64,000 nt of DNA from Oscillospiraceae bacterium (GCA_902795045.1 CADBJU010000002.1:131115-195114), one strand, 5' to 3'; positions 4,002 to 27,088 are shown, counted from the stretch's first letter. Translations and numbers: made by a program. Notes: generated from the sequence alone by a model not told the origin.

Positions 4002-5192
4002 ATGCAGTACAGAAAGGACCGAAGCGGCAACGACCTGAGCATCCTGGGCTACGGTTGCATGCGCTTTTCCAAGAAGGGCGCGGGCATCGACATCGCCAAA
4101 ACCGAGACGGAGCTCATGGCCGCCTACCGCGCCGGTGTAAACTATTTTGACACAGCCTACATCTATCCCGGCAGCGAGGCTGCCGTGGGCGAGATCTTCG
4201 AGCGCAACCACATCCGCGACAAGGTCCATATCGCCACGAAGCTCCCGCAGTACCTGATCGGGAACCGCGCCGCGCTCGACCGCTTCTTCAATGAGGAGCT
4301 CAGCCGTCTGCGCACTGATTACGTGGACTACTACCTGATGCACCATCTGACCGATGTAGCCATGTGGGAAAAGCTCAAGACCGTCGGAATCCTGGACTGG
4401 ATCCGGGAAAAGAAGGAGTCCGGGGCTATCCGAAACATCGGCTTTTCCTATCACGGCAACACGGAAAACTTTCTGAAAATCCTCAATGACTACGACTGGG
4501 ATTTCTGCCAGATCCAGTATAATTACCTCGACGAGGTGGCCCAGGCGGGCCGGGACGGTTTGCACGCCGCCGCGGCGAAGGGCGTGCCCGTCATGATCAT
4601 GGAGCCGCTGCGGGGCGGCAAACTTGTCAATCTGCTGCCGGAAGGCGCGAAGAAGGCCATGCAGGAAAGCGGCCGCGACTGGAGCCCCGCCGAGTGGGGC
4701 CTGCGCTGGCTGTATAACCAGCCGGAGGTGACGGTGGTCCTGTCGGGCATGAACTCGCTGGAAATGGTGGAGGCCAACTGCCGCACGGCAAGTCAGGCGC
4801 AGGCCGGGTCCCTGACAGAGGCGGACCTGGAGACCCTCGAGAAGGTCAAACGGGCCATACGGGAGAAAGAAAAGGTTGGCTGCACGGGCTGCCGCTACTG
4901 CATGCCGTGTCCCAAGGGGGTGGATATCCCCGGCACCTTCCGCAGCTACAACACCATGTACGCCGAGTCAAAGCTCGCCGGGCGCACCCAGTTCATCCAG
5001 ACGGTGGGCCTGACACGGGAACCGGCCTTTGCCTCCCAGTGCATACGCTGCGGCAAATGCGAGCAGCACTGCCCCCAGTCCATCCCCATCCGCGACAAGC
5101 TCCGGGAGGCAGACCGCGCCCTGCGGCCCTTCCCGTACAACGTTGCCATTCAGGCCGCCCGCGCCTTCATGTTCCGCAAAGCGAAAAAATAA
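4002..5192 (+). CDS. aldo/keto reductase with C-terminal 4Fe-4S ferredoxin-type cluster motif
   Basis: GGGGGG RBS before the ATG at 4002. N-terminus LSILGYGCMRF and FDTAYIYPGSE are AKR hallmarks. C-terminus has CxxCxxC...CP patterns (CTGCRYCMPCP, CIRCGKCEQHCP). Confidence 0.85.
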   Translation: MQYRKDRSGNDLSILGYGCMRFSKKGAGIDIAKTETELMAAYRAGVNYFDTAYIYPGSEAAVGEIFERNHIRDKVHIATKLPQYLIGNRAALDRFFNEELSRLRTDYVDYYLMHHLTDVAMWEKLKTVGILDWIREKKESGAIRNIGFSYHGNTENFLKILNDYDWDFCQIQYNYLDEVAQAGRDGLHAAAAKGVPVMIMEPLRGGKLVNLLPEGAKKAMQESGRDWSPAEWGLRWLYNQPEVTVVLSGMNSLEMVEANCRTASQAQAGSLTEADLETLEKVKRAIREKEKVGCTGCRYCMPCPKGVDIPGTFRSYNTMYAESKLAGRTQFIQTVGLTREPAFASQCIRCGKCEQHCPQSIPIRDKLREADRALRPFPYNVAIQAARAFMFRKAKK

Positions 5193-16537: not shown

Positions 16538-17503
16538 ATGAAGACGAGACAGATCCTGATCCTCATTCTCGCGCTGGCCCTGGTTTTCCTGACAGCCTGC
16601 AGACGGAGCAGCAAGACCCCCGAGGTCGTTACGCTCACACCGGCGGCGACAGTTCCCCCGGTCCAGACCGCGGCACCGACTCAAATTCCGGCCCCGACCT
16701 TTGCGCCGACCCCGGTGCCGACGCTGATGCCCACCATAGCGCCGACGCCCGTTCCTACCCTTGCGCCGACGCCCTTCCCCACGCCGTATTTTACACCCGC
16801 GCCCACGCCGTATAATCCGCCGGTGCAGTCCAATCTCCCCCGCATCACCAAGGACCCGACGGACGAGACCGTGACGGCAGGCGGCAAGTGCCAGTTCGTC
16901 ACGCGCTATGAAAACGCCGAGCTTGCCGAGTGGCACTTTTTAAGCCCCAACGGCGCGCTGGATGTGACCTACAAGGACGTGCAGAACCAGTACCCCGCGC
17001 TGCGCATCATCGGCGGCAACACCAAGGACATGACCCTTGAGAACATCCCCGCGGAGCTCAACGGCTGCCGGGTCTACTGCCGCTTCAGCAACTACGCGGG
17101 CGCCGTCAATACCAATTCCGCCCTCATCACCGTGAGGAACATCCCCGGTCGGCCGACCGCCGCTCCGGCGCGTCAGGGCTTTGAGGGCCGCTGGGTGGAG
17201 CCGATCGCGGGCCGCTGTCAGGTCACGATCACCTACCGGGCCGAAGGGAGCATGAATGTGGACATCCAGTGGTCCGGCTCCGCATGGCAGCTTGCCCGCT
17301 GGCAGATGACCGCGAACGTGTACCGGGATGACATTCTTACCTACAGCGACGGCCATTACTGGGTCGAGACCTACAGCGACGACACGAGCTACGCGGTCAC
17401 GGAGGAATCCTTCGGCGGCACCGGCAGCTTCTACTTTCAAAACGGCCAGCTCCACTGGCACGACGATCTAACGGGCCAGGACACCGCGCTGATCCCCGCA
17501 TAA
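16538..17503 (+). CDS. lipoprotein with Pro/Thr-rich linker and Ig-like plus beta-rich domains (function unknown)
   Basis: Signal peptide with lipobox LTAC, then about 70 aa of (A/V)PTP repeats, then an Ig-like block (ITKDPTDETVTAGGKCQF...RVYCRFSN). Confidence 0.7.
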   Translation: MKTRQILILILALALVFLTACRRSSKTPEVVTLTPAATVPPVQTAAPTQIPAPTFAPTPVPTLMPTIAPTPVPTLAPTPFPTPYFTPAPTPYNPPVQSNLPRITKDPTDETVTAGGKCQFVTRYENAELAEWHFLSPNGALDVTYKDVQNQYPALRIIGGNTKDMTLENIPAELNGCRVYCRFSNYAGAVNTNSALITVRNIPGRPTAAPARQGFEGRWVEPIAGRCQVTITYRAEGSMNVDIQWSGSAWQLARWQMTANVYRDDILTYSDGHYWVETYSDDTSYAVTEESFGGTGSFYFQNGQLHWHDDLTGQDTALIPA

Positions 17504-17509
17504 GGCAAA

Positions 17510-17548
17510 CAGCCGCCCTCCAGTCGGAGGGCGGCTGCTGTTTCATTT
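17510..17548. terminator. terminator between convergent lipoprotein and C11 peptidase genes
   Basis: cagccgccctcc-agtc-ggagggcggctg hairpin followed by a T-rich tract. Confidence 0.7.
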
Positions 17549-17561
17549 TACGCTGTGTAAC

Positions 17562-20057
17562 TCAGTAATCCCGGCCGAAGAAGCCCTCGTCGACCTTCCA
17601 TTCGGTGATGGCTCTGCCGGATGCCGTGGCGCCGATGACCCGGGAGTAATAGTTGTCGCCGCGGGAATCCGAGATCACGGCCGTGGTGAGGTAGTAGCCC
17701 TTGGGCAGCTGCTCACGGGTGACTTCGATACGGGCGGAAAACCGGATACTCTTACCCTCAACAGACTTTGTCTCGCCGGTCTTGTAATTCGTCTGTACAT
17801 AGAGAGGCACGATTTTCTTGCCGGCCTCCGGCTCAATGATGGAACGGGTGCTTGCCAGGGAGTTGATCGCGTTATCCTCATCCACCTTGCGGATGCCGCT
17901 GATGGCGCACTCGCCGGTATCCCTGTCACAGGAGATCATCAGATAGGCCTCATTGCCGTCATAATTGATATGCGCCTTGTACTCGATGCCCGCCGCGGTG
18001 GAGGAAACCGGTTCCACATACAGCGGTTCACCGTTGAGGCAGATCCAGGTACCGTCAAAGGTGCTTTCGAGGCCGCCCTCTCCGTCAAGGCGCAGCGCAT
18101 CCGCGCGGCCATAGTAGGTGATGGTTTGCTCGTCATCATCATACTTGCCGATCTCAAGCTGATATCCGGTCATGAGGCGCTGGAGCTCAGCATTCACGGG
18201 GATCACAAAGCCTTCGGAGTCGATAGCGGGTTCCGCCCTGCTGAAGTCGTGGAAGGCGGTGATATCCAGAATCTCAGGCTCTTTGTCGGTAAGCGTGGCG
18301 ACATACTTCTTTAGCTCGTCATTGAGGCAGCCCGCCTGCTTGTAGTAATACAGAGATCTGACGCTGTCACTGTCGCAGATGTCATAAACATACTCAAGGT
18401 AGTACACCAGACCGTTCAGGTCGCTGACATCAGTGGGGATGTAAACGGCCATGCCGGTGGAATCGCTGAGGGTGCCGCTGTCGCGATGGTACAGCACCGC
18501 TTCTTTGATGAGGTCCTTGATGCGGCTGCTCTGCTCGGGGTAGCTGTCGATGGTGTAGTCGACGTAGTTGCCGAGGTCCGCGGTATTGAAGACATTCGCG
18601 TGGTTGACACCGTAGCGCGTGGCGCGTACACCGCAGCGGCCGATATCCGCCAGCACGCCGAGATCCTGCACAGCGTCGACGAGCTGCGCCCGGCATAGCG
18701 CGCTGTAGGCATCATAGAGCTCACTTGCCTTGCTTGCGTCGATGACTGAGAAGGTTGTGTTGTTTTCAAGCATCGGCACATTGATGTTCTGGGTCACATA
18801 GTAATCCGTATAGGAATCGGCGATCTTCCGGCCGACCAGGGCGGGACTCATGGTGGGATCGTCCGTCAGGGCCTGCAGCCAGGGGCCGTAGTCCCAGCCG
18901 TCGCCGGGGATGACCTCCTCACTCAGGCAGTAGTAGCTTGCAAAGCCTTCAAGGGCGTGCGTCACCTCAAGGCAGCCCATGAGGCAGGCGTCAAAGCCGA
19001 TGATGTCAAAGGCAGGCTTTGCGCTGTTGGGACGGTAAACGCTCGAGAGTGCCTCGCGGATATTCTTGAGGGATAACATCTGGTCGAAGATGGAGTCCTG
19101 ACCGTAGCCGAAGGGGCCGCCGCCGTGGTCCCAGAGGACCAGCATATTGTGGTCGGCGGGGTACTCGTCCCGGCAGAAGCGCAGGAAGCCCGCCAGGGTG
19201 TCCGGCTCGGACGCCGGCTGCAGGGGCAGATCGGCCACCTCGGTGAACTTGCCGCCCTTATACAGGAAGCGCTGGGTGCGGTTCGGATTGATGAGGTCAT
19301 TCGTCCAGTGGGTGGCGCCGCCGGTCTGAATGACGATCTGGATATTGTCCCCCCAGACGCCGGAGGTCATTTCCGAAATGTCAGCCGAGGCCATGCCGGT
19401 ACGCTCGGAGACATGGACATCCTGCGTTACCACCGTGGAGGAGGCAACCGGCACATCGGGATAGTAGAAAAACTTCGGCAGCTCCAAACCGTTGTCCGCA
19501 AGCTCGGTGTTGTAGCGGTTGAGGCGGTCCATGGTCGCCATCCGGCTTTCATTCGCGGCGTCCTGTGCCGCGTCTCTCGTCATGACCGTGGTCACATAGG
19601 ACAGATCGTTTTCCGTATCGTCCTCCAGGTCCGCGCCGACGATATAGACGCTGATCGTCCAGGTTTCGTCCGCCTTGGACTTCGGCAGGGCGTCGATACG
19701 CGCTGCCCCCTCCTCGTCAATGGGAGACAGCTCATAGATCTGCTTCTTCTGTTCCTCGCTGAGGGGCTTGTTGCGCTGCTCCATGATGCTTGTCCGCAGA
19801 ATGGGGACAACGATTTCGTTGAAGATCGTCTCCATATTCGCGGCCAGCACGCCGACGATGAGCAGCAGCACCATCACGACCTTCAAAACCTTTTTCAGCC
19901 AGAGGTTCCACACCTTCTTGGGCCAGGGCGCATAGCGATAGTACTCCCGCTGCTCCTGCTTCTTGGCCCGCTTGGCCGCCTTCCAGCGCGCCCGTTTTTC
20001 CTTGCGCGTCAGCCGCTCCTTTCGGGCGGGTGCCGCAGTCTTTTCGTTTTCGTTCAT
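17562..20057 (-). CDS. membrane-anchored clostripain-family (C11) cysteine peptidase
   Basis: Basic cytoplasmic N-terminus, one TM (VLKVVMVLLLIVGVLAA), and catalytic His/Cys contexts LVLWDHGGGPFGYG and IIGFDACLMG typical of C11. The start ATG overlaps the stop of the upstream PP2C gene (ATGA). Confidence 0.85.
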   Translation of the reverse strand: MNENEKTAAPARKERLTRKEKRARWKAAKRAKKQEQREYYRYAPWPKKVWNLWLKKVLKVVMVLLLIVGVLAANMETIFNEIVVPILRTSIMEQRNKPLSEEQKKQIYELSPIDEEGAARIDALPKSKADETWTISVYIVGADLEDDTENDLSYVTTVMTRDAAQDAANESRMATMDRLNRYNTELADNGLELPKFFYYPDVPVASSTVVTQDVHVSERTGMASADISEMTSGVWGDNIQIVIQTGGATHWTNDLINPNRTQRFLYKGGKFTEVADLPLQPASEPDTLAGFLRFCRDEYPADHNMLVLWDHGGGPFGYGQDSIFDQMLSLKNIREALSSVYRPNSAKPAFDIIGFDACLMGCLEVTHALEGFASYYCLSEEVIPGDGWDYGPWLQALTDDPTMSPALVGRKIADSYTDYYVTQNINVPMLENNTTFSVIDASKASELYDAYSALCRAQLVDAVQDLGVLADIGRCGVRATRYGVNHANVFNTADLGNYVDYTIDSYPEQSSRIKDLIKEAVLYHRDSGTLSDSTGMAVYIPTDVSDLNGLVYYLEYVYDICDSDSVRSLYYYKQAGCLNDELKKYVATLTDKEPEILDITAFHDFSRAEPAIDSEGFVIPVNAELQRLMTGYQLEIGKYDDDEQTITYYGRADALRLDGEGGLESTFDGTWICLNGEPLYVEPVSSTAAGIEYKAHINYDGNEAYLMISCDRDTGECAISGIRKVDEDNAINSLASTRSIIEPEAGKKIVPLYVQTNYKTGETKSVEGKSIRFSARIEVTREQLPKGYYLTTAVISDSRGDNYYSRVIGATASGRAITEWKVDEGFFGRDY

Positions 20058-21904
20058 TCGTTTACCTGCGCTTTCTTGTTTTCAGTAATCTGTCCTGTAC
20101 TTCCCGCCGGTCGCCGACTTGCTCCCGGCCTGCCCTTGTATTCCAAACACAGCATGGTCAGGTCGTCAAACTGCGTGGCCTCGCCGGTAAAGGCCTCCAC
20201 GTCCGCCTTGACCCCCTCCAGGATGTGCTTTGGGTCTTTCTCTGCGTTTTTGTTAAGTGCGGCCTCCATGCGTTCCATGCCGTAGAAGGCGCCCTCTGCA
20301 TTATTGGCTTCGGGCACGCCGTCGGTATAGACGAAGACGGCATCGCCCGGCGCCATGTTGATCTCATAGTCCCGGTATTTGGATTTTGCCAGCGCCCCCA
20401 CCACGAGGCCGTGCCGGTCCTTAAAGATACGGAACACCCCGTCGGTCCCCCGGACCACCGGGTACTCGTGCCCGGCGTTTGCGCATGTGAGCACACCGGT
20501 TTTCAGATCGAGGATGCCGAGCCAGACGGTGACGAACATTTTGCTCTTGTTGTTCTTGCAGATCTCCGCGTTCACCGCGCCGAGGATCTCGCTGGGACTG
20601 CCGCCCATCTGCGCGCGATAATTGATGAGGATCTTGGAGGACATCATGAACAGCGCCGCCGGGACCCCCTTGTCGGACACGTCCGCGATCAGTACCGCAA
20701 GGTGGCCCTCGTCGATGAGGAAGAAATCATAGAAATCCCCACCCACCTCTTTGGCGGGCGTCATGCTGGCATAGAGATCAAATTCGTCCCGGTCGGGAAA
20801 GGCCGGGAAAATACTCGGCAGCATGGATTCCTGGATCTGGGAGGCGGTGCGCAGCTCGGTACTGACGCGTTCCTTCTCGGCCGTGGCCCGGGTCAGGTTC
20901 TCGGTGTAATCCACGATGCGGTTTTCCATGGAACGTATCTCATGATAGAGGTCCGTGACCTCGTCATTGCCCGGGATATCCAGGTCGATGACATCCTCCT
21001 TGGTGAAGGCCCGGTCTTCCTTGGCAAAGCGGGTGGCCGCTTCAGCAAGCTTCCGCAGAGGCTTGACGGCGGTGCGCTGGAGTACCGCCACACTGACGGC
21101 GATCGCGCCCGCCAGCAGGATCGCCATAAAGACGAGGCTCTGCCTGAGGAAGGAATAGCGCTCGCCGATGATGTCGGTCATGTTGATGTCAACACCCGCG
21201 ACCGCGGCAGGCTTCTTCGTATCCCAGTCGATCACCGGTTCGATCGCGGTGAGAAGCCATCCGAAGGCCGAGCGGTACACGATCGGCGGTACGGCGACAT
21301 TGCCCTCGTATTCCTCAAACTCAGCGACCGGCTGCTCGATCGTGCCGATATAAAACATGCTTTCGTCAGGGTCCGCGATGTTATAGGTGACGCTGCCTTC
21401 GCCATACTGGTAATACGCGGCATCAACGTCAAAGTACTCCTTGATCCCGAGAAGGCCGGAGAGGATGTCCTCATAGTCGTCCAACAGCGTCCATGCTTCG
21501 TTCTGCGTGTCATGCTCATCGTCAAAAACAGGATCATTTTCCGTGCTGACGGCTTCTGGCTGCAAAAAGAAGCTCTGTTGGCTGCGCATCCAGTCCCCGA
21601 TCGGCGTTTCGTCGTTTATGTCCTTCGCGCGCTTTTGTACCTCCCGGAACTCATCCGTGTTGACCTTGTCCCAGAAGTACATCAGCATATCGGCCGATAC
21701 GTTGTTGGCACAGGCCTCCGCCGCACGGCGGACGGTCCGGTCGTATTTATCGTCGACTCGCTGGCAGAAGATATAGTAGCTGATCGCCGTAAGGCCCGCC
21801 GCGACAAGCAGCATGCTGCAGATCACAAGCGCGCTCAGCTTTACCTGCATGCTTACGCGGTGCGGCTGCTTTTCCGACCTGTTCTGTTTCCTTGTCTCTT
21901 CCAT
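20054..21904 (-). CDS. membrane sensor PP2C (SpoIIE/RsbU-type) serine phosphatase with extracytoplasmic Cache-like and HAMP domains
   Basis: TM, about 230 aa external block (FGWLLTAIEPVID, AGVDINM), TM, HAMP (AVKPLRKLAEAATRF), then PP2C motifs (EVGGDFYDF, IADVSDKG, VYTDGVPEA, DDLTMLCL). Confidence 0.9.
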   Translation of the reverse strand: MEETRKQNRSEKQPHRVSMQVKLSALVICSMLLVAAGLTAISYYIFCQRVDDKYDRTVRRAAEACANNVSADMLMYFWDKVNTDEFREVQKRAKDINDETPIGDWMRSQQSFFLQPEAVSTENDPVFDDEHDTQNEAWTLLDDYEDILSGLLGIKEYFDVDAAYYQYGEGSVTYNIADPDESMFYIGTIEQPVAEFEEYEGNVAVPPIVYRSAFGWLLTAIEPVIDWDTKKPAAVAGVDINMTDIIGERYSFLRQSLVFMAILLAGAIAVSVAVLQRTAVKPLRKLAEAATRFAKEDRAFTKEDVIDLDIPGNDEVTDLYHEIRSMENRIVDYTENLTRATAEKERVSTELRTASQIQESMLPSIFPAFPDRDEFDLYASMTPAKEVGGDFYDFFLIDEGHLAVLIADVSDKGVPAALFMMSSKILINYRAQMGGSPSEILGAVNAEICKNNKSKMFVTVWLGILDLKTGVLTCANAGHEYPVVRGTDGVFRIFKDRHGLVVGALAKSKYRDYEINMAPGDAVFVYTDGVPEANNAEGAFYGMERMEAALNKNAEKDPKHILEGVKADVEAFTGEATQFDDLTMLCLEYKGRPGASRRPAGSTGQITENKKAQVNE

Positions 21905-21908
21905 GGCG

Positions 21909-22316
21909 CTACAGAACCTTCCTGATGGTCAGGATGTTCTTCCCTTCCCTGTACTCATAGCGGACATCGTCCATGCTCTTTTTTACCATGTAGATGCCAA
22001 GGCCCCCGATCTTCCGGTCTCTGGCGGAGAGCGTGGTATCCGGGTCGCTTCTCTCGAGGGGATTGAAGGGCCTGCCCCCATCCGTGAAAGTGATGGAAAC
22101 AATACGCGGTTCACGCTGCGTCTCCATCGCCACGGTCACCTCGCCGCCGTCGTCGTCAAAGCCGTATTTGGCAATGTTGCTGTACAGCTCGTCGATGGCA
22201 ATGTCGATCTGGGCCTTTGTCTTGAGCGCGCAGCCCATGCGTTCAAGCTCCCGGTTGACAAATTCGATGATCGCCGGGATATTTGTCTGTCTCGCGGGCA
22301 ATGTCAATTCTTTCAT
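21909..22316 (-). CDS. RsbW/SpoIIAB-like anti-sigma-type serine kinase (HATPase)
   Basis: GGAGGG RBS 8 nt before the ATG at 22316 (ORF-track start 22346 is possible). N-box DELYSNIAKYG, G-boxes DGGRPFNP and GGLGIYMVKK. Confidence 0.85.
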   Translation of the reverse strand: MKELTLPARQTNIPAIIEFVNRELERMGCALKTKAQIDIAIDELYSNIAKYGFDDDGGEVTVAMETQREPRIVSITFTDGGRPFNPLERSDPDTTLSARDRKIGGLGIYMVKKSMDDVRYEYREGKNILTIRKVL

Positions 22317-22354
22317 CCGCCGCACCCTCCGTATATTTGCGGGCACGCGGCCAG

Positions 22355-22657
22355 TCAGACAATGTTCATGATTTCAAGAAAACCGGTCACGTCGAACACA
22401 TCGTGAATGATGTCATTGACATTGCGAAGCTCCATCTTCTTGCCCTGATCCTCCAGCGTCTGCTCGAAGGTGAGCAGCACGCGCAGACCGGCCGAGGAAA
22501 TGTAGTCGAGCTTTTCACAGTCCAGCTTCAGCTCGGAGATGCCGTCGAGCATCGGCTCCACTTCCCTCTGGAATTCCGGCGCGGTATTGGTGTCCAGGCG
22601 CCCGTCCAGCGCGACGTCGAGGACGCCGTTTCCGAGCTTCTTCGTGATATTGAGCAT
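22355..22657 (-). CDS. STAS-domain anti-sigma-factor antagonist (RsbV/SpoIIAA-like)
   Basis: 100 aa. The phosphorylatable-Ser context LDYISSAGLRVLL is typical of SpoIIAA/RsbV. Confidence 0.9.
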   Translation of the reverse strand: MLNITKKLGNGVLDVALDGRLDTNTAPEFQREVEPMLDGISELKLDCEKLDYISSAGLRVLLTFEQTLEDQGKKMELRNVNDIIHDVFDVTGFLEIMNIV

Positions 22658-22684
22658 GGTGTTTCCCTCCTGAAAATGACTGAT

Positions 22685-24022
22685 TTATAAATACTGATAC
22701 TTGGAACGATATTTATTCAAGGCATACGCCGTGACAAAAGCGCTCAGAAGCTCCGCCGCCGGCCAGGCGCTCCAGAGTCCCGGACCGCCGAAGAGGGCCG
22801 TCAGGCCGTAGAGGCAGCCGCTCAGGATCACAAAGGAGCGGATAAAGGACAAAAGTCCCGACACGACGCCGTTGCCGAAGGCGGTGAAGAGCCCGGAGCC
22901 GAAGATATTGAAGCCGATAAACAGGCACGCGGGCAGGATGATCAGATAGCCGAGAGAGGCGATGCGGTGAAACTCCGTCCCCTCCTTGAAGAAGATCCCG
23001 ACCATGGGGCCGCGCAGCAAGAACAGCAGCAGCATCATGACCACGCCGAAGATCAGGTTCCACCGGATGCTCAGGCGGAAAACTCGCTTTCGCATCTCCA
23101 CGTTCCCGCTGCCGTAGTGGAAGGAGAATACCGGCTCCACGGCGGAGGTGTAGCCCATGAAGACCATCGAGATCAGCACCTGCACATAGGTGATCACTGC
23201 GAGCGCGCTCACGCCGACCTCGCCGTAGCAGCGGTAGGCCAGATGATTCATGAACAGCACCGTGATGCCCTCGGCCAGATTGGAGATCATGTCGGACGAG
23301 CCGTTAAAGCAGATGCCGCCGATCTCCTTCATGTCGGGCTTGGCAAGCTCCAAATGATAGGAGCTTTTGCGCGCGATGATGTAAAACCACACGGCGTAGA
23401 CGATGGTGCTGCAATAGCCGATCACGGTAGCAAGCGCCGCCCCGCGAATGCCCATGTGGAGCTTCGCCATAAAAACATAGTCCAGCACACAATTGAGCAC
23501 ACCGCCGATCATGATGACGATGGCCGCCACCACGGTTTTCCCCTCGCCGATGATGAGGATGCCGAGCTCGGACTGCAAAAGGATCGCGAGGGAAAAGCTG
23601 CTCAGGGTCATATAGTAGGGGCGCAGGTACTCGATATTTCCCTCTGTTGCGCCGCAAAGGCGCATGATGGGATCGGCAAAAAGCAGGCAAACCGCGGTAA
23701 AGACGATGCCGCAGATCACCGTAAAGGTCATCACGCGCGAGAAGGTCTGGCCCGCCTCTTTGCGCTTGCCCTCGCCGACCTTGCGGACGATGACGGCGTT
23801 GCCGCCGGTGCCGATCATGATGCCGACGGCGATGAAAAGGCTGATGATGGGATAATAGAGGTTGATGGCGCTGATGGCGAGCTCCCCCACATAGCGCTCG
23901 ATAAACAGCCCGTCCACCATCTGGTACACCCCGATAAAGACGAAGGTGAAGATGCTGGGGGCCACAAATTTCAGCAGTGACCAGAAGGTAAACTCCTGGG
24001 ACAGCTCTTTTTCCTGATCCAT
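22685..24022 (-). CDS. MATE-family efflux transporter
   Basis: 445 aa, 12 predicted hydrophobic helices. The N-terminal LLKFVAPSIFTFVF..YQMVDGLFI pattern is typical of MATE/NorM proteins. Confidence 0.9.
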   Translation of the reverse strand: MDQEKELSQEFTFWSLLKFVAPSIFTFVFIGVYQMVDGLFIERYVGELAISAINLYYPIISLFIAVGIMIGTGGNAVIVRKVGEGKRKEAGQTFSRVMTFTVICGIVFTAVCLLFADPIMRLCGATEGNIEYLRPYYMTLSSFSLAILLQSELGILIIGEGKTVVAAIVIMIGGVLNCVLDYVFMAKLHMGIRGAALATVIGYCSTIVYAVWFYIIARKSSYHLELAKPDMKEIGGICFNGSSDMISNLAEGITVLFMNHLAYRCYGEVGVSALAVITYVQVLISMVFMGYTSAVEPVFSFHYGSGNVEMRKRVFRLSIRWNLIFGVVMMLLLFLLRGPMVGIFFKEGTEFHRIASLGYLIILPACLFIGFNIFGSGLFTAFGNGVVSGLLSFIRSFVILSGCLYGLTALFGGPGLWSAWPAAELLSAFVTAYALNKYRSKYQYL

Positions 24023-24028
24023 GGCCGC

Positions 24029-27019
24029 TTACTTCTTTCTGCTGAAGATGCCCGCGATGGTCTTGAAGAAGTTCTTATGATCTTCGAGCTTATCCTTGAT
24101 CTCGCCGATGGTCACGTCCGCCTGGGAGTTATGGGTCACGAGCGCCTGGGCAAGCTTTACATAGATGTCCTTGAAACGCTCCATGCTCTCCTCCTTGTAG
24201 CGGGAGGCGGCAAAGTCGATCATCAAGGTCAGACCGTCGGCCCCGTCGAGGATCTCCATGTCCAGGATGGTCTGGGAGGCCGCCTGGTTCTGGCGGATAT
24301 CTACCATCTCCACGTCAAAGCCGTCCTTGCCGCCCATGTCGCGGATGTCCTGCTGATAGAGAAGATAGGCGCATTCGCTCTCCCCCGCCTGGTTTCGGCT
24401 GTCCACATAGGGGTAGCAGCTGTGCTCGATGCCCTTCTGCACCTGCTCGTGCACATCGGCAAAGACATTGCGCAGGGTGTCCCGGTCCTTGAAGCGGATG
24501 CCGATGGGCAGATCGCGGAAGAGAAGGCCCACCGTGGTCATGTTCTCCATATCCTCGCGCCCGTTGTAGATCCAGGAGATCTTCACATCCGGCGTGCGGT
24601 TGTAGATGGAGATGGCAAGCGCCGCCACCGTGATGAAAAACTCGTTGCGGCTGATCTTATAGGCCTTCTCCATGGCGTTCATCTGGGGCTGGAGGATGCC
24701 GAGGGGCGCAAAGAGCTCGCCCATCTCGTTGTCTCTCGACTCGTGGTCGGTCTGCGGGAAGCAGGACCAGTCGACCCGGTCATAGCGCTTTTCAAAGTAG
24801 CGGCGGCTCTCTTCATAGAAGGCGGAGTTTACCGCGTCCTCGCGGCGCTGGAGCATGAGGTAATAGAAGTCGGGATCGGCCTCGAGGCCAAGATAGGTCT
24901 TGCCGATGTCCGACATGAACACCTTCAGGGAAGTGCCGTCAAAAACAGAGTGGTGCACGTCGAAGAAGACATAGCCCGCCTTCTCGGTCTCAAACACCCG
25001 GCAGCGGCAGAGTCTGCCGCCCACGATCTTGAAGGGATAGACCAGCGTATCGCGCACATAGCGCAGCTCAAACTCGGTGAGCTTTTCCACATCTATGTCC
25101 CAAAGCTCCTCCGGGTGGTAGCTCTGCACCAACTCCCGGTCACGGTTCCAGGCAAATTTCGTCAGCAGGGCCGGATGGTGGGAGATGACGGCCTTGAGCG
25201 TCTCGGCCATCTTCTCCATGTCGATGGCGTCCTTGTCAAGCTTCATCATGGAGTAGAGGTTATACATCGTGGAGTTTGGCGTATAGAGCTGATAGTCCAC
25301 CATATAGAGCTGTTCGGTGGTGAGGGGGTGCTCTTTTCCCCGCGCCTCCTGCTCCTTCACCTCGGGCGCGACGCCGTCGTTCTGAGCAAGGCTGTCCATA
25401 TAGAGCTTTGCGATCTTCTCCGGCGTGCGGCCGCGGAAGATGAGTCCCGCGTTCAGGCCCTCGAGGGCGCACCTTGTCACAACGTCAATAGAGCCGAGAG
25501 AGTCGCCGCCCATCTCGTAGAAATCGTCCTCGATGCCGACGCGGTTGAGGCCCAGGACCTTGGCCATCGCCTTGCAGATCACCTTCTCGACATCGTTTGT
25601 CGGGGCCAGGTAGCTGCTCTGGAAGTCCTTCGCGTCCGGCGCGGGCAGGGCCTTGCGGTCAAGCTTGCCGTTGGCCTTGAGGGGGACGCTATCAATCTTC
25701 ATGAAGTAGGCCGGGATCATGTAATAGGGCAGGCGCTTTAATAACTCCTCGCGCAGGGCCGCCGGGTCAAAATGCACATCCGCCGTATAGTAGGCGCAAA
25801 GGTAGCTCTTGCCCTCCTCCTCGAAGCCTCGGGCCGCGCACCAGTCGATATTGAGGGCCTGCTTGACGGCGGCCTCGATCTCGGCGGGCTCGATGCGGTT
25901 GCCGTTTATTTTGATCATGTCGCCGCTGCGGCCGAGCAGGACATAGTTGCCGTTTTCGTCCTTTGCCGCGAGGTCCCCCGTGTGGTAGACGCCGTTTACG
26001 AAGGCCTTCGCCGTCTCCTCGGGGAGATTGATGTAACCGCGCACATAGGGATTCGTAAAGCAGAGCTCGCCGGTCTCGCCGTCGGCGACCTCTTTTCCGT
26101 CCTCGCCGATGAGCGTGATCTCCGTCTCCACCTGGGGCTTGCCGATGGGGCAGGTCTCGTAGGGCTTGTCGATCTTGAAAAAGCCCACGGCAAAGCCGCT
26201 CTCGCTGCATGCGTAGATGTTGATGAGGTCGAGGTTTTTGTTATAGAGGTTGTTGGCGGGCTCGCTGCCCACGAACAGCATGCGCAGGAAGGGGCCGGTG
26301 TTATTGCCGATCTTGCGCACATAGGACGGGGTCAGGAAGGTGATGGTGATGCGCTTGGAGAGGAAGAACTTCGCAAGCGCCGCCGTATTTTTGATGGTTG
26401 AATAGGATACGATATAGTTCTTGCCGCAGTAGACATTCAGCGCCGCGAGGATAACGATGACGGTGGCGACAAAGTTCATCGGGGCCAGGGTCGCAAGGCG
26501 GTCCTTCTCGTTGAAGGGCACCTCGCCGTCGATGCGGATGGAGTCGATAGCGCGCTGGAGATTGCCGTATTCGTGCAGCACGCCCTTGGGGTTTCCTGTC
26601 GTGCCGGAGGTATAGATCGCGTAGGCCGCGTCATGCTCGTCCGGGTCCTCGTGGCCGGCAAGGGGTGTTACACGCATGATGTCGTCCCAGTTGTCGGCGC
26701 TGATTTCCAGCTTGCAGCCGCAGTCCGTGCGGATATAATTGATGCGCTCTGGGGCGTAGGTATCCTCCACCAGCGCCCAGGCGGCTCCCGCCTTCCAGAC
26801 ACCGATCATGGCGATCACCGGCAGCACGCCGCGCGGCAGGTCGATGAGCACGAAGTCCTCCCGCCCGATTTTGTTCTCCTTCAGCCATGCGTAGACACGG
26901 CCCGACATATCGTCCAGCTGCGCATAGGTGACGCCCTTGGCATGCAGATCGTCAAAGAGGATCGGCGCGCCGGGGTTTTGCTCGGTATACTGCTGAAGCT
27001 TATCAATGATTGTTTGCAT
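24029..27019 (-). CDS. single-module nonribosomal peptide synthetase, A-T-C architecture
   Basis: GGAG RBS 8 nt before the ATG at 27019 (ORF track starts at TTG 27025). A-domain cores YTSGTTGNPKGV, YHTGDLA, GRSGDMIKINGNRIEPAEIE, NGKLDRKALP. Carrier motif FYEMGGDSLGS. C-domain motif HHSVFDGTS. Confidence 0.9.
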   Translation of the reverse strand: MQTIIDKLQQYTEQNPGAPILFDDLHAKGVTYAQLDDMSGRVYAWLKENKIGREDFVLIDLPRGVLPVIAMIGVWKAGAAWALVEDTYAPERINYIRTDCGCKLEISADNWDDIMRVTPLAGHEDPDEHDAAYAIYTSGTTGNPKGVLHEYGNLQRAIDSIRIDGEVPFNEKDRLATLAPMNFVATVIVILAALNVYCGKNYIVSYSTIKNTAALAKFFLSKRITITFLTPSYVRKIGNNTGPFLRMLFVGSEPANNLYNKNLDLINIYACSESGFAVGFFKIDKPYETCPIGKPQVETEITLIGEDGKEVADGETGELCFTNPYVRGYINLPEETAKAFVNGVYHTGDLAAKDENGNYVLLGRSGDMIKINGNRIEPAEIEAAVKQALNIDWCAARGFEEEGKSYLCAYYTADVHFDPAALREELLKRLPYYMIPAYFMKIDSVPLKANGKLDRKALPAPDAKDFQSSYLAPTNDVEKVICKAMAKVLGLNRVGIEDDFYEMGGDSLGSIDVVTRCALEGLNAGLIFRGRTPEKIAKLYMDSLAQNDGVAPEVKEQEARGKEHPLTTEQLYMVDYQLYTPNSTMYNLYSMMKLDKDAIDMEKMAETLKAVISHHPALLTKFAWNRDRELVQSYHPEELWDIDVEKLTEFELRYVRDTLVYPFKIVGGRLCRCRVFETEKAGYVFFDVHHSVFDGTSLKVFMSDIGKTYLGLEADPDFYYLMLQRREDAVNSAFYEESRRYFEKRYDRVDWSCFPQTDHESRDNEMGELFAPLGILQPQMNAMEKAYKISRNEFFITVAALAISIYNRTPDVKISWIYNGREDMENMTTVGLLFRDLPIGIRFKDRDTLRNVFADVHEQVQKGIEHSCYPYVDSRNQAGESECAYLLYQQDIRDMGGKDGFDVEMVDIRQNQAASQTILDMEILDGADGLTLMIDFAASRYKEESMERFKDIYVKLAQALVTHNSQADVTIGEIKDKLEDHKNFFKTIAGIFSRKK

Positions 27020-27059
27020 GACCAATTCTCCAGTCGTTGCAGAAATTTCCTAATTTAGT

Positions 27060-27088
27060 ATTTTACCACTGCAAATTCACTCACGCAA
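27060..27088 (-). promoter_or_regulatory. sigma-A type promoter (extended -10) for the NRPS cluster
   Basis: Minus strand TTGCGT, 17 nt, TGgTAAAAT; about 35 nt upstream of the NRPS start. Confidence 0.55.

Follow-up and report, generated by a model that had tools for sequence, protein, structure and literature searches.

A 64,000-nucleotide stretch of DNA from an Oscillospiraceae bacterium (GCA_902795045.1 CADBJU010000002.1:131115-195114; hereafter, the window) encodes on its minus strand a 996-amino-acid, single-module nonribosomal peptide synthetase (NRPS) that joins an adenylation (A), a thiolation (T), and a condensation (C) domain, carries valine at the position of Asp235 of the PheA A domain, and heads an operon with an efflux transporter and a set of partner-switching genes. 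We think it probable that this gene specifies an intact, self-contained, one-module NRPS-like acyl-transfer enzyme that passes a non-amino acid to a free nucleophile, together with a means of export and a signal-dependent switch. The family is uncharacterized yet recurrent, and its cassette is found mainly in ruminant-gut genomes.

The open reading frame (ORF) runs from 27019 to 24029, with its ATG at 27017–27019, its stop codon at 24029–24031, and a GGAG sequence 11 nt upstream of the ATG. Pfam recognized an AMP-binding domain (residues 10–327, 1e-48), a PP-binding domain (residues 480–537), and a Condensation domain (residues 563–970, 9e-41), and the best NCBIfam matches of the protein were NRPS families. 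The gene and its parts are as follows.

24029..27019, minus strand: single-module NRPS gene (A-T-C), 996 amino acids, identified from the ORF, start codon, ribosome-binding site, and Pfam and NCBIfam domains.
25625..27019, minus strand: A domain, residues 1–465, identified from Pfam AMP-binding, the top structure matches LgrA, TycA, and GrsA, and readable A3, A7, A8, and A10 cores.
26468..26470, minus strand: codon of Val184, the equivalent of PheA Asp235, placed by HMMER alignment to TycA and a profile-column control, with coordinates checked.
26198..26221, minus strand: A5 core variant NIYACSES (canonical NxYGPTE), from the translation, the TycA alignment, and a coordinate check.
25385..25594, minus strand: T (carrier) domain with GGDSL, Ser507 codon at 25499–25501, from Pfam PP-binding.
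24110..25333, minus strand: C domain, residues 563–970, with HHSVFDGTS at 24929–24955, from Pfam, an AlphaFold2 (AF2) model, a fold search, and a tree.
24032..24076, minus strand: C-terminal tail KNFFKTIAGIFSRKK, amphipathic and basic, which may be a membrane-targeting helix, from conservation, hydrophobic moment, and a predicted helix.

Relatives were collected by scanning one genome per species, which yielded 552 candidates; we analyzed the best 80 of these, and compared motifs and pocket codes across 78 family members. The A domain contains the canonical ANL/NRPS cores A3 (sought as TSGTTGxPKG, present as YTSGTTGNPKG), A7 (YxTGD, present as YHTGD), A8 (GRxDxxxKxxGxRIE, present as GRSGDMIKINGNRIEPAEIE), and A10 (NGKxDR, present as NGKLDRK). 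It scored 212 bits with the amino-acid adenylation model TIGR01733, under the 317-bit cut-off, which marks it as divergent. The A5 variant, which the initial annotation of this locus had noticed, is a property of the whole family, whose members read NIYAASESG or NIYACSESG and keep the Tyr and the Ser/Thr-Glu pair. The GGDSL of the carrier domain has the GG(H/D)S(L/I) form, with Ser507 as the serine for phosphopantetheine attachment and GGDS invariant in the family, and HHxxFDG, present in our protein as HHSVFDGTS, is intact in 78 of 78 relatives. That this C domain is terminal, with no further module or thioesterase (TE) after it, had been claimed from the outset and was confirmed in the 996-residue protein. 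The quoted strings EKDRLATLAPMNFVATVIVI, NIYACSES, and HHSVFDGTS were all found at their computed coordinates. The tail is conserved in the clade of relatives with at least 68% identity and is missing from homologues at 40–48% identity; its core has a hydrophobic moment of 0.64, and a helix is predicted at low confidence. We rejected the idea of a decaying gene or pseudogene, given that all motifs are intact and conservation is strong.

The central question for the A domain was whether it is an ordinary amino-acid-activating module in which the missing Asp is an artifact of alignment. Overall similarity could be taken to favor this idea, as the closest solved structures are the A domains LgrA, TycA, and GrsA, which act on amino acids. 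However, HMMER pairwise alignment to wild-type TycA (9bfd_A) set SFDASVW opposite NFVATVI with top posterior probability, making Val184 the counterpart of Asp235, and an independent profile alignment agreed. For the latter, 803 control A domains taken from 146 large NRPSs were aligned to a profile of the A-T-C family; because Asp fills the Val184 column in 736 of them (92%), this column corresponds to position 235. An unrelated A-T-C protein from the same bacterial family (L022) likewise shows Asp in the column. The ten-residue code read from the TycA alignment, VAISFVIFAK (positions 235, 236, 239, 278, 299, 301, 322, 330, 331, and 517), includes no acidic residue, nor is there an Asp displaced to position 236. 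Of the 78 family members, 64 have exactly this code, and every one, homologues at 40–48% identity included, has Val or Ile at position 235, so that the Asp typical of alpha-amino-acid A domains is lacking family-wide. We therefore regard the artifact as very improbable, and the Val that the initial annotation had placed at position 235 by eye stood up to both alignments.

To our knowledge, the rest of the pocket code resembles no recognizable amino-acid code. Judged from these residues, the pocket is probably built for a greasy non-amino acid. The earlier suggestion of a substrate without an alpha-amino group thus gains from the family-wide loss of Asp, while the class of the substrate still has to be read from the pocket, and the substrate may also be a 2-hydroxy acid.

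Related A-T pairs also occur at the start of a longer enzyme. P0154 (2999 amino acids, A-T-C-A-T-C-A-T-R) opens with an A-T that shares 54% identity with that of the window protein and has Ile at position 235, which indicates that such an A-T serves as a loading module. The first C domain of P0154 is just 21% identical to the C domain of the window protein, so the A-T and C parts have separate histories. Among the control A domains, a residue other than Asp at position 235 was found in 10 of 52 loading domains versus 57 of 751 others. Val235 with VAIS or VAVS codes was also seen in elongation C-A-T modules of the giant NRPSs P0166 (A domains at 1474 and 4935) and P0151 (A domain at 4908), with no room for a ketoreductase (KR) domain; these modules may incorporate hydroxy acids or unusual amino acids.

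We then considered what else the genome could offer such an enzyme. In the assembly, which comprises 2.75 Mb and is 92% complete, the only C domain is that of the window protein, and there are two carrier domains, one in the window protein and the other in a 122-amino-acid frame that we take to be the fatty-acid acyl carrier protein (ACP). Neither MbtH nor TE was found in this 92%-complete assembly, nor was a partner C domain of DCL type. In a genome that offers neither a partner carrier nor a TE, the C domain would most simply release the acyl group by handing it to a free nucleophile. Release onto a free amine or alcohol, as first proposed, is in that sense well placed, with the acceptor itself deduced from what the genome lacks. 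A single phosphopantetheinyl transferase (PPTase), 221 amino acids long and Sfp-type, is encoded on another contig, in agreement with the earlier statement that no PPTase or MbtH gene lies near the NRPS gene. No AcpS-type enzyme was detected in the genome, so the lone Sfp-type PPTase is presumably responsible for priming the fatty-acid ACP as well as the NRPS. The PPTase gene (L001:473-2070, contig C15) overlaps the start of a downstream N6/N4 DNA methylase gene by 4 nt (ATGA).

The C domain has the expected fold. An AF2 model of residues 552–996 (pLDDT 84) matched every solved type of C-superfamily domain (LgrA, the RzmA starter C, CmnI, AmbB-TC, and VibH among them) with Z scores of 28–34, including superpositions on AmbB-TC at Z 32.5 and on VibH at Z 30.5; this fold search confirms the fold of the model and assigns no subtype. 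In a search with the family profile, the best single-domain score was that of the LCL domain TycC6 (89.8 bits); VibH gave no match at E 0.01 or better, and OaaC was absent from the matches in both the sequence and the fold searches of solved structures. We also built a tree with 231 of 917 C-superfamily domains from large NRPSs, labeled by context. The family was monophyletic and fell in the LCL-type half, inside a small mixed subclade, while all 45 context-defined epimerization (E) domains and 12 terminal ones formed one clade (58 tips, SH-like 100) that excluded it.

What the initial annotation had not mentioned, and what is the most distinctive feature of the family, is the company that the gene keeps. 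It had called the enzyme stand-alone, which is correct for the protein, a single A-T-C polypeptide, and incorrect for the gene, the first in an operon of six: NRPS, MATE, STAS, RsbW-like kinase, sensor PP2C, and C11 peptidase, with intergenic gaps of 6, 27, 8, 4, and -4 nt. The genes that follow the NRPS, and the end of the operon, are as follows.

22685..24022, minus strand: MATE efflux transporter, starting 6 nt past the NRPS stop, from Pfam MatE and NCBIfam MATE; many relatives also have a MATE gene right after the NRPS gene.
22355..22657, minus strand: STAS anti-sigma-antagonist-type protein with the phospho-Ser motif DYISSAGLRVLL; found in 26 of 35 well-flanked relative loci.
21909..22346, minus strand: RsbW-like serine kinase (HATPase_c_2), likely start the ATG at 22316, from domain searches.
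20054..21904, minus strand: membrane sensor-HAMP-PP2C (SpoIIE-type) phosphatase, from domain searches.
17562..20057, minus strand: C11 (clostripain-family) peptidase, whose gene closes the operon and overlaps the phosphatase gene at an ATGA; a clade-specific neighbor.
17510..17537, no strand assigned: GC-rich palindrome with a 12-bp stem just past the last stop codon of the operon, a likely terminator found by sequence scan.

By Pfam and NCBIfam, the STAS protein with its DYISSAGLRVLL motif, the HATPase_c_2 kinase, and the PP2C phosphatase make up the set of a partner-switching system of the RsbV/RsbW/RsbU or SpoIIAA/AB/E type, and the N, G1, and G2 boxes of the kinase are readable (ELYSNIAKY, DGGRPF, and GGLGI). 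No sigma factor was present in the operon or among the recurrent neighbor families of the 80 loci, the places to which the search for a target was confined.

To learn which neighbors belong to the cassette, we clustered all flanking ORFs of the 80 loci and obtained few recurrent families. A type-B carboxylesterase gene lies directly downstream of the NRPS gene, and is translationally coupled to it, in 50–54 of the 80; the others are MATE (28), STAS (39–53), PP2C (29–31), and the RsbW-like kinase (16–26). A carboxylesterase or MATE gene was found in 71 of 73 loci with enough downstream DNA, and at least one switch gene in 28 of 35 well-flanked loci, the remaining flanks being unrelated between loci. 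Gene order varies by clade, some having PP2C-kinase-[MATE]-STAS-NRPS-esterase and the window having NRPS-MATE-STAS-kinase-PP2C, with the STAS gene abutting the NRPS start in most relatives; the linkage has thus been maintained through rearrangement. The linked esterase does not occur in the lineage of the window. Elsewhere these esterases lack a signal peptide and end in a hydrophobic segment with basic residues, which makes them tail-anchored with a cytoplasmic catalytic domain. Mean column identity was 76% for the NRPS versus 52% for STAS.

The family itself comprises more than 100 protein clusters at 75–99% identity, all but a few of 995–999 residues. The best 80 of the 552 relatives are 68–96% identical to the window protein, and almost all come from genomes labeled ruminant gut or rumen, under the names Oscillospiraceae, Ruminococcus, Candidatus Limivicinus, Lachnospiraceae, Butyrivibrio, Christensenellales, and 'Bacilli'; the set includes two cultured strains whose genomes are complete, Ruminococcus hollandia JE7B6 and R. 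vasco JL13D9. A search of representative clusters, dominated by giant NRPSs, returned few 50%-identity clusters in the family (P0109, P0194, and the fragments P0218 and P0239). Within the bacterial family of the window, 2 of 200 sampled species had a homologue (40–42% identity); the other 198 had no full-length family-type homologue at 40% identity or more, and neither did two species of the same genus. A housekeeping role was rejected on the strength of these absences. High identity across labeled orders, patchy presence, and unrelated flanks together point to horizontal spread.

Other genes were seen beside the cassette less often. A multi-pass membrane protein of ~231 amino acids and no Pfam family adjoins the PP2C gene in 13 loci (L072:3252-3935 and 12 more), and a protein of the BaxI_1 family (BaxI-like) follows the esterase in 7. 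In three loci (L048:2876-4009 and two others), a 377-amino-acid fusion of STAS to an APH-type phosphotransferase, a kinase of another family than the RsbW type, adjoins the cassette. P0154 (L106:841-14106) is followed by a 425-amino-acid protein of no family, a STAS-APH kinase fusion, and a 588-amino-acid MatE protein, and thus represents another type of NRPS that is linked to STAS and a MATE pump. A 41% homologue (L021:1174-2652, genome G056) is followed by an apolipoprotein-N-acyltransferase-like protein (LNT_N and CN_hydrolase) and then MatE, neighbors which hint at lipids or lipoproteins as possible targets of distant relatives. The clade of the window (the window locus itself and L024, L025, L026, and L031) keeps large peptidase genes with its cassette, C11 downstream and S41 upstream, a trait that is not family-wide.

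Taken together, we propose the following sequence of events for the window protein. The A domain, with its VAISFVIFAK pocket and Val in place of Asp235, would adenylate a hydrophobic carboxylic acid without an alpha-amino group, and the acid would then be held as a thioester on the protein's own T domain, primed by the single Sfp-type PPTase encoded elsewhere. The C domain, through HHSVFDGTS, would pass the acyl group to a free amine or hydroxyl that is not carrier-bound, so that the product would be a small molecule acylated on N or O. Its probable exporter is the co-transcribed MATE pump, and the amphipathic basic tail probably holds the enzyme at the membrane. In most relatives the cytoplasm-facing, tail-anchored type-B carboxylesterase that follows the NRPS would replace or join the pump. 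The switch of sensor PP2C, RsbW-like kinase, and STAS protein, which comes with no sigma factor, most likely ties production or export to a signal. A bolder version, possible in our view and rather doubtful, is that the cassette is a self-contained, horizontally mobile signaling-and-output unit of the rumen whose switch acts directly on cassette proteins (the NRPS, its carrier domain, the MATE pump, or the esterase).

Several points weigh against this proposal. No member of the family has been studied biochemically. The codes VAISMVGMAK and VAISVVAIGK sit in elongation C-A-T modules without KR; as elongation modules must supply an amine or hydroxyl, Val235 is no proof of a substrate that lacks a nucleophile, and the substrate is possibly a 2-hydroxy acid or an atypical amino acid. 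A genome that is 92% complete leaves room for a missing partner. A scan for sigma-70 promoters came up empty immediately upstream of the NRPS gene. In bovine-gut metatranscriptome data, one 10.6-kb contig from a cDNA run covers positions 17000–26977 at ~98.4% identity, and pieces of the locus occur in three RNA studies; the adjoining intergenic and upstream DNA is covered too, so these libraries show that the locus is present and, as DNA carry-over is possible, do not speak to transcription or operon structure. Lastly, the evidence on the C domain is not one-sided: fold scores are equal for all C types, E domains come close to C domains in the family-profile search (BacC E 74.4 bits and TycA E 61 bits versus 89.8 bits for TycC6), and an approximately unbiased (AU) test left a grouping of the family with E domains unrejected (p = 0.064).

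The last set of observations bears on an alternative in which the C-terminal domain is an epimerase, giving A-T-E as in TycA and GrsA, or is otherwise non-condensing, so that an alpha-substituted acid is inverted on the carrier and released by a hydrolase, which in most relatives would be the linked esterase. Apart from the profile scores and the AU test, a stretch NGRED aligns with the GHGRE motif of E domains, and the cytoplasm-facing esterase coupled to the NRPS in most of the 80 relatives could provide the release. Its difficulty is that the E domains of known context form a single, fully supported clade to which the family does not belong, and that the N-terminal motif PLTTEQLYM is C1-like rather than the PIQxWF that is the consensus of E domains. 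In the lineage of the window, moreover, there is no linked esterase and the genome has no TE, which would leave an A-T-E protein without a release route, and the DCL-type C domain that would be its partner is missing. We consider an epimerase improbable, and keep the transfer to a free nucleophile as our preferred account; the C-domain phylogeny that the initial annotation had proposed thus supports it by placement and leaves it short of statistical certainty.

Two observations were made in the DNA upstream of the gene. A sequence TTGCGT-17-TAAAAT at ~27040–27075 is a promoter candidate picked by eye. The intergenic segment 27098–27471 has a summed contig depth several-fold above its flanks in four RNA-library runs (117 versus 21–31 in run X2), and many loose contig ends lead from it into sequence that is unrelated. 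The segment resembles a palindromic intergenic repeat in multiple copies, common to other genomes or places.

A different alternative concerns the acceptor, which could be a component of the membrane or envelope, or a protein. The enzyme would then be a membrane-face acyltransferase working on a lipid, a lipid-linked precursor, or a lipoprotein, and the MATE protein, as a member of the MOP superfamily, would move the modified carrier. The conserved amphipathic basic tail, the tail anchor of the partner esterase, the multi-pass and BaxI-like neighbors (13 and 7 loci), and the Lnt-like N-acyltransferase and MatE that follow the 41% homologue would all suit an enzyme of this kind. However, the MATE protein scores as efflux-type rather than as a member of a flippase family, the tail is missing from distant homologues, and nothing in the data speaks directly for any lipid. 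On balance we find a membrane-bound acceptor unlikely, and continue with a small free acceptor.

If the bolder version holds, an enzyme at the membrane face would make or release a small acylated molecule solely upon sensing an outside signal, and a nonribosomal synthetase would be switched at the level of protein rather than by transcriptional control. In the literature we found no paper that ties partner switching mechanistically to an NRPS. Most work on NRPSs concerns large peptide assembly lines, and one-module A-T-C acylators of free molecules are barely characterized (TybD and the gut fatty-acid amides); gut fatty-acid amides act on host receptors. Identity of ~70% between genomes labeled as different orders or classes, with an invariant pocket code, is unusually high, and this conservation, the ruminant-gut range, and the shuffling with exporter or esterase and switch suggest one specific rumen small molecule made upon a signal. 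The cultured carriers JE7B6 and JL13D9 make both the product and the idea of a direct switch testable.

Among known systems, the AmbB- and VibH-like logic put forward in the initial annotation survives for VibH. AmbB, from the pathway to the AMB antimetabolite, shares only the A-T-C order: it activates L-Ala for transfer to an acceptor that is bound to a carrier of AmbE, whereas the window genome has no second NRPS carrier. VibH, of vibriobactin synthesis, resembles our proposal in that a C domain joins an acyl donor bound to a carrier and a free amine, and differs in being a free-standing C domain to which an aryl donor is delivered in trans. The better precedents are VibH, TybD, and the gut fatty-acid amide (FAA) pathway.

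A valine at position 235 also recalls A domains that activate 2-keto acids, in which an aliphatic residue takes the place of Asp235 (PMC10949194, PMC13643306). Those of the cereulide, cryptophycin, and hectochlorin type share the aliphatic residue with the window protein, but sit in A-KR-T modules, whereas the window protein contains neither a KR recognizable by Pfam nor room for one. The gene neighborhood has a precedent in the rumen organism Methanobrevibacter ruminantium M1, where the region mru0066-mru0071 has an NRPS flanked by STAS (anti-sigma-factor antagonist), serine phosphatase, and MatE genes, to which the authors assigned roles in sensing, regulation, and export of the product (Leahy et al., 2010, PMC2812497). 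The linkage of NRPS, STAS, phosphatase, and MatE has thus been known in that species since 2010, annotated rather than analyzed or tested. The M. ruminantium enzyme differs in being a two-module C-A-T-C-A-T protein with a terminal release domain; it is no A-T-C protein with a pocket for a non-amino acid, and no esterase accompanies it.

In the FAA pathway of gut Clostridia (OaaA/OaaACP/OaaC; ebf/ecf clusters), which like our family belongs to gut Firmicutes, an acid is activated, carried, and condensed by a C domain with a free amine (Chang et al., 2021; PMC13310621, PMC10871352). This shared logic, the presence of a hydrolase in FAA clusters as well, the hydrophobic pocket, and a tail that could bind membrane raise the question of whether the window protein is a fused version of that pathway, joining a long-chain fatty acid to a biogenic amine. 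Compared by description, the two differ in most particulars. FAA enzymes are free-standing A, ACP, and C proteins with SCP2 and PPTase genes in the cluster, whereas the window protein is fused and its operon contains neither gene. The FAA C motif, (D/H)HxxxD, continues mostly with S or A and in just 17% with Gly, as opposed to HHxxFDG throughout our family. The A domain of the window protein is NRPS-type rather than a fatty-acyl-AMP ligase, and the bulky pocket residues F299, V301, I322, and F330 would argue against a long chain. Lastly, 95% of FAA clusters belong to Clostridium cluster XIVa, whereas our family is mostly from ruminant-gut Oscillospiraceae and Ruminococcus. A fused FAA pathway is therefore, in our estimation, as improbable as the epimerase.

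The tyrocitabine cluster of Lactobacillus iners encodes TybD, another precedent for the mechanism that we favor. As summarized in PMC13235161, TybD (Patel et al., 2022) is a stand-alone enzyme in which an A domain, a peptidyl carrier protein (PCP), and a C domain are joined (A-PCP-C); it acylates free hydroxyls of a small molecule instead of making a peptide, a transporter of the cluster exports the product, and esterases remove the acyl groups. TybD is thus, like the window protein, a one-module enzyme of this order in a Firmicute, a likeness of architecture and, on our proposal, of logic rather than of compared sequences. The tyb cluster differs in its TybB-like (tRNA-synthetase-like), TybC, and TybE genes, which have no place in the window operon or among the recurrent neighbors; the window cassette, unlike tyb, comes with a phospho-switch and, in relatives, with a tail-anchored esterase on the producer's side.

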